A DNA stretch of 4,726 bases from Candidatus Nanohaloarchaea archaeon (GTDB lineage Archaea; Nanohalarchaeota; Nanosalinia; Nanosalinales; Nanosalinaceae): NCBI GenBank assembly GCA_047617745.1, contig JBLGBN010000033.1:1-4726 (forward strand). Direction: 5' to 3'. This document shows, piece by piece, positions 3,001 through 4,726 of the stretch. A program made the position numbers. Position 1 is the first letter of the stretch. Each line of letters starts with the position of its first letter.

Positions 3001-4726
3001 GTCTGGTGAGAAGATTGTGATTCCGCGGTCGTACTGTGCCTGCTGTTGGTTAGTCATCTGCATTATTAGAATTCACCTTTGATAGTTATGTCAAAGTTAA
3101 GTCTTGGAAGATTTATTAACCTGTTCCGTCCGTTTCTTTTTCCGCGAGGTTTCAGTTCCCTGGAACTGGAAAGCCTTTTTTAGATTATGCGGACAGACAA
3201 TCTACATGGGATGAAAGCCGGTTAACCGGCCGACCACAGATACGGGCTCCACTAGCTCAGGGGTTAGAGCACCGTCCTTATACGGACCTCACACAGAAAA
3301 ATACTGGCCTTTGAAGCCCTGTGTGTTGCCTAAAGTTAGGCGGCGGTCCCGGGTTCGAATCCCGGGTGGAGCAATTTACATGGAACAGATTGAAGAGGGA
3401 AGTCTGTGGAACGAAGTGGAGAAGGTAAAAGATTTTCACGGCAGGAATTTCTCACAATTGACCGATAATTTCTACATAATGAGAGCGGTTCTGAGATATT
3501 ACTCGGTGAAACAGGGAAAGTCGATCACCTCAGCGAGTATTTCTGATAATTTCCCCCTAACAGCGCCGGTTGCAGGTTCGTGTCTAACCGCTCTTGAGAA
3601 GCTTGACGTTGTTGAAAAGAGAACAGAGTCAAGTTCGAAGAGCCGTTATCTGCCCCAGGATGTCGATATGGAGAGGATGATGGAGCTTGAAGAGGTCTTG
3701 AAGAGGCGGCTGGAGATAGAGGATTTTTTAACCTGAGCTAGGTAAATTAGAGGTATGGTATCCGGAAATCTGAAGACGTATCTGAACCATTTTCTGCCCC
3801 GGGAGATTGTAGGGCCGGTGATTATAGTTTTCTCGCTTGAAGGCGTTATCAGCGGTTTGTTTGATCTTTATGTCCCTCAGGAGTTTGCAACTCTGGCCTG
3901 GGGAGCTATCTTTTTGATGTCGGTTTACCTGGTTGCCAAGTGGGGTACAACCGGCGAAGCTGAAGAAGAGCTTGAAGAAAAGCTTGAAGGTACCTAAGTA
4001 GAGCTATAGAGATTTTATTATATCGCGTTAAGGGCATCCTGCATATTTTCATAATTCTCTGCTAGATCATTCAGCCCTGTCTTGAGTTCATACCGCATCC
4101 AGTTTCGGGGTTTGGTCCTGTCTGCTCTGGTTGATTTTCCATCGTGAATATCGAGCATGCCTAGTTTACCAGTTTCTGGATCACGGTAGATGTTCTGTGG
4201 TTTTGTATCTACCTCGAAGCCTTCCTCCGCGGCAGGCTCTATAATATCCTCAAATACTTCATCGACAAAATTTACAGGATTTTGAATCAGGTCCCTGAAT
4301 GTTTCCTCCATTTTTCTCTGCACCACAACAAAATCGTATCCGAATTCAGGTCCAAGTTCTGAATAAACCGTTTCTGGGTAAGGGATATTTGCGCTGTCCA
4401 GCCTCTCCATATTTTCTTCGACTAACCCATTTCTTTTGTCGTCTGTAAACTTTGCGACGGTGCCGTTTTCGAGAAAATACACTGCCTCTGCCATCTGATA
4501 GTTGTATATATCTTTTTCCAGCGGCTCTATCCCGGAATTTAGGCATCGATCTGCGTTATCTTCCAGGTCTACATCGTTGAGGTTAACTGACACAGCCAGA
4601 CACTATGTTGTTATTACCAGGCAGCAAATAAAAAGCTGTTGGTTTTTCCGGTCAGGAAACTGACTTTAACACGTGAAAGAATTTGTTCTGTATGGAAGAG
4701 TTTGACCTAATTATTATCGGCGCCGG

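Follow-up and report, generated by a model that had tools for sequence, protein, structure and literature searches.

In archaea, the isoleucine codon AUA is canonically read by tRNA-Ile2(CAU), together with TiaS, the enzyme responsible for agmatidine. The gene described below would serve the same task, the reading of AUA and not of AUG, but neither component of the canonical system was found in the Nanohaloarchaeota. The closest described case is that of ARMAN-2, -4 and -5, whose tRNA-Ile(UAU) is interrupted by an intron at position 37/38 and which have, no TiaS and no tRNA-Ile(CAU) (Fujishima et al., 2011; PMC3239211, a text accessible in part). According to the available portions of two other reports, Nanoarchaeum equitans and Korarchaeum cryptofilum have a tRNA-Ile3(UAU) and no tRNA-Ile2(CAU), and the tRNA-Ile(UAU) gene of Korarchaeum is, as here, interrupted by an intron (PMC8450103, PMC6000648). 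Among bacteria, Mycoplasma mobile also reads AUA with a UAU anticodon and lacks the C34-modifying enzyme, but its tRNA-Ile(UAU) differs from the one reported here in that it is bacterial and intron-less, with a U34 shown to be unmodified (PMC3575796, in extract). In yeast, Pus1 acts at positions 34 and 36, where it forms pseudouridines, only as long as the precursor contains its intron, which in addition prevents the formation of ncm5U34; the eukaryotic tRNA-Ile(UAU) shares with the gene studied here the UAU anticodon, an intron at 37/38, a pairing between anticodon and intron, and a retention of the intron in all cases (PMC11408192, in the excerpts available).

The window analyzed in our study is the whole of contig C33, of 4,726 bases, from a nanohaloarchaeal assembly of 834 kb in 34 contigs that is 88.6% complete; nanohaloarchaea are grown in co-cultures with their hosts. 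Other genes on this contig are a fragment of Rrp4, SBDS and the proteasome alpha subunit, neighbors that fit an archaeal genome. A preliminary description of this DNA had placed a tRNA-Ile(UAU) with a 55-nt intron at 3246-3373 on the forward strand, and the gene was recovered there both with Rfam and with an intron-aware run of ARAGORN. The Rfam tRNA model (RF00005) matches 3246-3373 (+) with 52.2 bits (E = 1.8e-09; model positions 1-71), above the gathering threshold of 29 bits, and the resulting alignment contains a 56-nt insertion on the 3′ side of the anticodon loop. With introns allowed, ARAGORN reports tRNA-Ile(tat) i(39,55), with an intron of 55 nt and a cloverleaf with stems of 7/4/5/5 bp; without the intron mode, it calls no tRNA at 3246-3373. 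The 5′ exon (3246..3282, +), as delimited by Rfam, ARAGORN and the sequence itself, comprises the acceptor 5′ strand, the D arm, the 5′ strand of the anticodon stem (CCGUC) and loop bases 32-37 (CUUAUA), with the anticodon TAT at 3279-3281 (+). The 3′ exon (3338..3373, +), delimited by the same evidence, comprises A38, the 3′ strand of the anticodon stem, the variable loop, the T arm, the acceptor 3′ strand and A73; CCA is not encoded. Between the two lies the intron (3283..3337, +; 55 nt), which ARAGORN, the alignment of loci and constrained folds put at or next to the canonical position 37/38. Our placement, based on the comparison of 54 homologous loci, is one base 5′ of that of ARAGORN, because all of these loci have, in front of GGCGG, an A that we take as A38, and the first base of the intron may be C, A or T. 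After the predicted splicing, the anticodon loop would consist of 7 nt, CUUAUA and A38, with U33 and A37, and this loop is invariant in the 54 loci. We regard it as very probable that the intron-bearing tRNA-Ile(UAU) is the AUA reader of this nanohaloarchaeon; its transcription, its splicing, its charging with isoleucine and its decoding we infer.

The gene is widespread in the phylum. A DNA search gave matches in 60 of the 70 Nanohaloarchaeota genomes, the weak ones being other tRNAs, and the copies were classified by alignment of the exon halves from the fetched loci. By exon alignment, the complete gene (CCGUC-CUUAUA, the intron and GGCGG) is present in 53 genomes; the only genome of family f2 has a copy with two introns, found with a looser pattern, which brings the total to 54 of 70 genomes and four of the five families. 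Cut or partial copies are found in three further genomes (G037, G061 and G067). No copy was seen in 13 of the 70 genomes, the completeness of which is 61-91%, and pattern searches that covered five of these 13 revealed nothing beyond a chance match; in four, a looser anticodon-arm pattern gave no copy. The intron is at 37/38 in all of the 54 complete genes, which bears out, for these 54 genes among 70 genomes, the earlier statement that the arrangement is lineage-wide and the intron always kept; its length ranges over the phylum from 37 to 146 nt, with some 27 nt in the copy of f2, and the exons are almost invariant across the 54 loci. Also as first described, ARAGORN calls tRNA-Ile(tat), with introns of 40-129 nt, at 29 of the 30 best loci; in intron mode, this program misnames some copies (as Ser, Asp or Tyr) although their exons match those of the other copies. 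In its main features the gene resembles that of the ARMAN archaea, likewise members of the DPANN, in which a UAU anticodon, a bulge-helix-bulge (BHB) intron at 37/38 and the lack of TiaS and tRNA-Ile(CAU) occur together and for which a direct reading of AUA was proposed; it differs in belonging to another phylum (ARMAN being Micrarchaeota/Parvarchaeota) and in an intron of 55 nt, as opposed to 25 nt in ARMAN-2 (PMC3239211, as far as that text was available).

The ancestry of the gene was approached by comparison with other tRNAs. The tRNA-Ile(UAU) of Korarchaeum is closely similar to the tRNA-Ile(GAU) of the same organism, in the part of the literature at hand, whereas the acceptor and anticodon stems of the two isoleucine tRNAs are quite different here; tRNA-Ile(UAU) is therefore no recent duplicate of tRNA-Ile(GAU). 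With an origin from tRNA-Ile2(CAU) in mind, the genomes of 185,579 species were scanned for this anticodon arm with CAU in place of UAU; of the 113 matches, none is a tRNA.

The codon that this tRNA is proposed to read is in frequent use. In 723 long ORFs, taken as a crude gene set, isoleucine is encoded by ATA 5580 times, by ATC 5210 times and by ATT 3414 times, so that ATA accounts for 39%; the order is the one given in the preliminary description, in which AUA was the commonest Ile codon. The isoleucine identity of the tRNA we infer from the anticodon and A73 only. Because IleRS and MetRS separate their tRNAs mainly by position 34 (PMC11685878, in the accessible portion), one could imagine that the UAU tRNA does not carry isoleucine and that AUA has been reassigned, for example to Met, but we hold this to be extremely improbable. 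When the RtcB gene was compared by eye with the Pyrococcus RtcB chain, its 15 ATA codons fell on Ile in nine cases, conserved motifs among them, on Val in three and on Met, Trp and Ala in one each; thus, 12 of the 15 are at Ile or Val positions. The discriminator base, A73, is a further point against reassignment.

The absence of TiaS was assessed with two models. The TiaS_FLD domain (PF08489) gave nothing above 11.5 bits in the source genome and a single match in the set of 70 Nanohaloarchaeota genomes, and the four archaeal control genomes were positive; these results reproduce the counts originally reported (none here, one in the 69 other genomes). The one match, in G048, was considered as a TiaS or as a contaminant and was rejected: it is a 189-aa acidic ORF with 23 bits, located on a contig of 2 kb, in which the remaining TiaS domains are missing. 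That a single domain model had been searched was acknowledged from the outset as a weak point, and the full-length model NF040849 now meets it, since this model also yields no real TiaS in the 70 genomes. As a reference, a TiaS of 416 aa from a Methanoregula genome, with TCKD, FLD, OB fold and zinc ribbon, scores 401 bits on NF040849; the archaeal controls are positive with this model, yet below its cut-off of 600 bits. In none of the 70 Nanohaloarchaeota genomes was either the kinase or the FLD part of NF040849 matched. Weak matches, of at most 20.8 bits, are present in 25 of the 70; they lie at model positions 239-410 (the OB fold and zinc ribbon), and most of the ORFs concerned are small. 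A gene with the architecture of TiaS (TCKD, FLD, OB fold and zinc ribbon in about 420 aa) was likewise not found in the 70 genomes. Gaps in the assemblies cannot account for this, because for eight of the genomes the assembly consists of one contig. Together, the PF08489 and NF040849 searches support the view that TiaS is missing from the whole phylum Nanohaloarchaeota.

The same domain is rare elsewhere in the DPANN. TiaS_FLD was found in none of 121 sampled genomes in the phylum of a Micrarchaeota-titled genome, and in two of 151 sampled genomes in the phylum of an Iainarchaeum-titled genome. The Nanohaloarchaeota had at first been presented as a third archaeal group that reads AUA by a UAU anticodon, a claim that does not hold in view of ARMAN-2, -4 and -5, reported in 2011 (PMC3239211, in the part available), and of these two additional, nearly TiaS_FLD-free DPANN phyla. 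The Nanohaloarchaeota are thus an addition to the known TiaS-less, UAU-reading archaea and not a third group, and together with the scans of the two other phyla, the result suggests that TiaS was lost broadly among the DPANN and not just in a handful of exceptional cases. In our literature search, no paper was found that names Nanohaloarchaea along with tRNA-Ile(UAU), TiaS or agmatidine.

The other component of the canonical route, tRNA-Ile2(CAU), was sought among the tRNAs of the source genome and of G066, a closed genome of the same genus that provided a second test of the CAU tRNAs. ARAGORN finds 36 tRNAs in the source genome, 13 of them with introns. Two have the anticodon CAU, as had been stated before: one (C19:8687-8763) is of the initiator type, with A1-U72 and an anticodon stem that has three G-C pairs at its bottom, and the other (C16:13861-14014) is an elongator with an 80-nt intron. 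In G066, ARAGORN also finds 36 tRNAs, with a single CAU tRNA, an intron-bearing elongator; BLAST and a scan for the T arm and acceptor added three tRNA genes, for a total of 39, one of which is the initiator, broken by a non-canonical intron, so that this genome likewise has two CAU tRNAs. The T-arm and acceptor scan of the source genome revealed no further tRNA, and scans of both genomes for CAU 5′ halves and for 3′ halves revealed no third CAU tRNA. The lone elongator with a CAU anticodon is needed for Met, which leaves no candidate for tRNA-Ile2(CAU). With 36 and 39 genes, neither tRNA set is complete: Trp, Tyr and Val-UAC tRNAs were not detected among the 36 tRNAs of the source genome, and since isoacceptors that are needed, such as Val-UAC, escape detection, hidden multi-intron or split tRNA genes must exist. 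Within these sets, tRNA-Ile2(CAU) appears to be absent and CAU to be borne by the initiator and elongator Met tRNAs only.

The incompleteness of the tRNA set even in the closed G066, with its 39 genes, together with the existence of non-canonical introns such as that of its initiator, leaves room for a tRNA-Ile2(CAU) concealed by several introns or in a split gene, with a C34 modified by some enzyme without relation to TiaS, which homology searches would miss; in that case, the role of the UAU tRNA would be a redundant or minor one. We consider this very unlikely. It would have to be reconciled with the absence of TiaS in 70 genomes, with the lack of any third CAU 5′ or 3′ half in the source genome or G066, and with the use of AUA as the commonest isoleucine codon; moreover, the near-invariance of the exons across the phylum indicates strong purifying selection on the UAU tRNA, which argues against a redundant role. 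In the reading that we prefer, with tRNA-Ile(UAU) as the AUA reader, the usual archaeal route through tRNA-Ile2(CAU) and TiaS-dependent agmatidine is absent from the whole phylum.

The archaeal BHB motif is formed by two 3-nt bulges that contain the splice sites, a 4-bp helix between them, and flanking helices. In folds of the precursor in which the anticodon stem was enforced, a BHB motif is predicted in most copies (for example, L005, L018, L031, L045 and L056); the unconstrained minimum-free-energy folds gave no cloverleaf. In the constrained folds, bases C32 to A35 pair with URAG near the 3′ end of the intron, followed by an outer helix, and the bulges are formed by U36-A37 with the first base of the intron, and by the last two bases of the intron with A38. 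In the source gene, the exon side of the central helix, C32 U33 U34 A35 (3277..3280, +), pairs with intron positions 3332-3335 (helix 4 of the alignment) by three Watson-Crick pairs and an A-A mismatch, whereas most relatives have four pairs. Thus, the folds predict a BHB intron at 37/38, in a relaxed form in the source copy. Covariation was examined in an alignment of 34 genes of family f1 out of the 54 loci; it did not include seven f1 genes that are long, nor the 13 genes of families f4 and f5. There, 89.0% of the cells of the central helix are paired, and the pair of A35 is AU in 22 of the 34 rows and unpaired in 12. The structure as a whole is paired in 97.5%; shuffled alignments give 91.8%, and sliding the partners gives no more than 45.4%.

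Within the intron, a conserved helix is formed by CACACAG (3290..3296, +) and CTGTGTG (3319..3325, +), as seen in both the alignment and the folds. Compensatory changes occur in all of its seven pairs, and 94.9% of its cells are paired, so that the covarying helix CACACAG/CUGUGUG of the preliminary description is upheld. This helix immediately adjoins the outer helix of the BHB, and the Ala, Arg, Asn and Thr introns of the source genome form the same kind of BHB with a long hairpin. For these two reasons, adjacency to the outer helix and the like folding of the other introns, we read it as a part of the splicing substrate, in which the long covarying helix continues the splice motif outward.

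The enzymes of the proposed pathway are encoded by the genome. The splicing endonuclease domain (PF01974) is matched with 94.3 bits at C19:9783-10064, and the RtcB ligase (PF01139) with 544.4 bits at C13:717-2006. The endonuclease match is a single catalytic domain, contained in an ORF no longer than 212 aa, unlike the three-unit epsilon2 endonuclease of ARMAN-2 (PMC3239211, accessible portion). We propose that the precursor folds as a BHB, in which C32-A35 are paired to the intron's 3′ end and the flanking bulges contain the splice sites, that the endonuclease would cut at 37/38, and that RtcB would join the two exons; the mature tRNA, with the loop CUUAUAA and A73, would be charged by IleRS and read AUA directly. 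For ARMAN-2, splicing was shown in vitro (PMC3239211, same portion), whereas here it is predicted from sequence and folds. Among the sequencing reads, the lone run recorded as RNA covers 3000-3087 alone, with 90-95% likeness, and a run guessed to be RNA contains the unspliced 5′ exon and intron of a relative; a skip of 50 nt (3287 to 3338) was confined to one contig of a DNA run. None of these reads bears on expression or splicing.

The preliminary description had also suggested that the intron is needed in the manner of its eukaryotic counterpart. Its retention might reflect a step at the wobble base for which the unspliced precursor is required, either to install a modification at U34 or U36 or to shield U34 from one that would enable the reading of AUG. 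This explanation, drawn by analogy, bears on the fixation of the intron and not on the function of the tRNA. What lends it interest is, besides the yeast precedent for an intron-dependent step (PMC11408192, in the part available), the distribution of introns. The intron is present in all 54 complete tRNA-Ile(UAU) genes, in four families, whereas that of tRNA-Ile(GAU) is polymorphic: among 60 genomes with matches, 11 could not be classified, and of the 49 that could, 19 have the intron and 30 do not, the state varying even within the source genus. Between the source genome and G066, compared over 27 isoacceptors by their ARAGORN names and leaving out three with two differing copies, introns occur in both genomes for six, in one only for ten and in neither for 11; their presence thus differs in 10 of the 16 isoacceptors that bear introns at all. 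The elongator tRNA-Met(CAU), the other reader of AUR codons, has an intron, with a conserved start, in all 39 genomes in which matches to both of its exons were found. The counts come from mutually related genomes and are not independent. Against the turnover of introns elsewhere, the retention of the intron in 54 of 54 genes is notable; it is not unique, since that of tRNA-Met(CAU) is equally fixed.

In the precursor, moreover, the constrained folds and the alignment place the anticodon in a pairing with the intron. However, such pairing is to be expected of any BHB intron at 37/38, and long hairpins of a similar kind are formed by other introns in the source genome. Several other observations speak against an intron-dependent step, and overall we think it unlikely. 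The Pus1/TruA family (PF01416) was found in none of five nanohaloarchaeal genomes, three of them closed, with 13 of 14 controls positive, and TruD and TruB/Cbf5 were found in all five; the present system thus differs from the eukaryotic one in the absence of Pus1/TruA from these five genomes, and also in that splicing would follow the archaeal BHB route. No box C/D or H/ACA features were seen in the tRNA-Ile(UAU) intron. In other archaea, seven of the 16 tRNA-Ile(UAU) genes inspected are intron-less (three in genomes with Micrarchaeota titles, one with an Iainarchaeum title and three in archaeal MAGs), which shows that a tRNA-Ile(UAU) of archaea does not in general require an intron; TiaS_FLD was found in none of five genomes from this set of other archaea, three of which (G071, G072 and G074) have an intron-less tRNA-Ile(UAU). 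An old intron that was simply not lost may explain the retention. Thus, the suggestion of a eukaryote-like need for the intron is not sustained, given the lack of Pus1/TruA in the five genomes, the seven intron-less copies among 16 in other archaea, and a conserved helix that continues the splice motif.

The proposal that tRNA-Ile(UAU) is the AUA reader would add a whole phylum, the Nanohaloarchaeota, to the archaea that read AUA by a UAU anticodon instead of agmatidine. For the annotation of their genomes, it means that no tRNA-Ile2(CAU) is to be expected and that tRNA finders aware of introns are needed. The difference between fixed and polymorphic introns provides, in turn, a concrete and testable hypothesis: that a step dependent on the introns of the tRNA-Ile(UAU) and tRNA-Met(CAU) precursors sets position 34, by which the reading of AUA would be kept distinct from that of AUG. 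We regard this extended form as more doubtful still than an intron-dependent step on tRNA-Ile(UAU) itself. If it were true, the step would install or block a wobble modification, and would be an archaeal counterpart, relying on a different enzyme, of the interplay between Pus1 and Elongator in yeast.

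In the window, the tRNA-Ile(UAU) gene (3246-3373) is preceded by three genes on the - strand, coding for an Rrp4 fragment (3-290), SBDS (1582-2268) and the proteasome alpha subunit (2356-3063), an arrangement that corresponds to the archaeal exosome-proteasome gene neighbourhood. In a same-genus MAG, G067 (77% complete), the copy of the tRNA gene on contig C41 (locus L048) lacks 32 bases when aligned to window positions 3190-3380. The gap runs from the last part of the leader through positions 1-25 of the tRNA, so that the conserved upstream motif CCGGTTAACCGG directly abuts the anticodon stem; no 5' half for this tRNA was found elsewhere in the incomplete G067 assembly. 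The locus may represent a pseudogene or a split tRNA gene, or the assembly may be wrong at this point. In the sole genome of family f2 (G001:C3, about 26070-26230; L473), the tRNA-Ile(UAU) gene differs in its anticodon stem, which reads CCAGU, and seems to be interrupted twice, by an intron in the D loop and by another at 37/38. Two tRNA-Ile(UAU) genes, with different acceptor stems and with introns of 57 and 100 nt, are present in MAG G043 (L026 on contig C46 and L060 on contig C43), and represent either two genuine copies or two strains in one bin.

The longer tRNA-Ile(UAU) introns, among them those of loci L018, L021, L022, L028, L052, L056 and L060, carry a palindromic hairpin of the type CCAGCUCNGCUGG, inserted immediately 5' of the 3' splice region. 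This hairpin possibly represents a small element that is mobile or was duplicated. Some of the introns have additional hairpins. An intron-less tRNA-Ile(UAU) with an identical anticodon arm is found in bacteria, in MAGs of Patescibacteria and Planctomycetota (L080, L090, L112, L115, L116 and L122). As to TiaS, the agmatidine synthase, a weak TiaS_FLD-like stretch (23 bits) was detected in a highly acidic ORF of 189 aa on a 2-kb contig of G048 (G048:C58:62-631, - strand; L002), and no other TiaS domains were found in this ORF.

Introns are also found in some of the tRNA-Met genes. In the genome under study (G000), the elongator tRNA-Met(CAU) gene (C16:13861-14014; L475) has an intron of 80 nt, which is kept in all 39 genomes in which both exons were matched, and the initial 20-50 bases of which are conserved across families. 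The initiator gene of the same genome (C19:8687-8763), which lies about 1 kb from a splicing endonuclease gene (C19:8687-10064 for the whole region; L357), is intron-less, whereas that of the closed congener G066 (G066:C1:855263-855410; tile L351) is split by a non-canonical intron of about 70-80 nt, located in the region that extends from the D-arm to the anticodon stem, and was not detected by ARAGORN. When the whole tRNA sets of G000 and G066 were compared, an intron was present in one genome only for 10 of the 27 comparable isoacceptors. Thus, there is a rapid turnover of tRNA introns within the genus. Just 39 tRNA genes were found in G066, with Val-UAC among the absentees; as this genome is closed, some of its tRNA genes must therefore be concealed by unusual structures.
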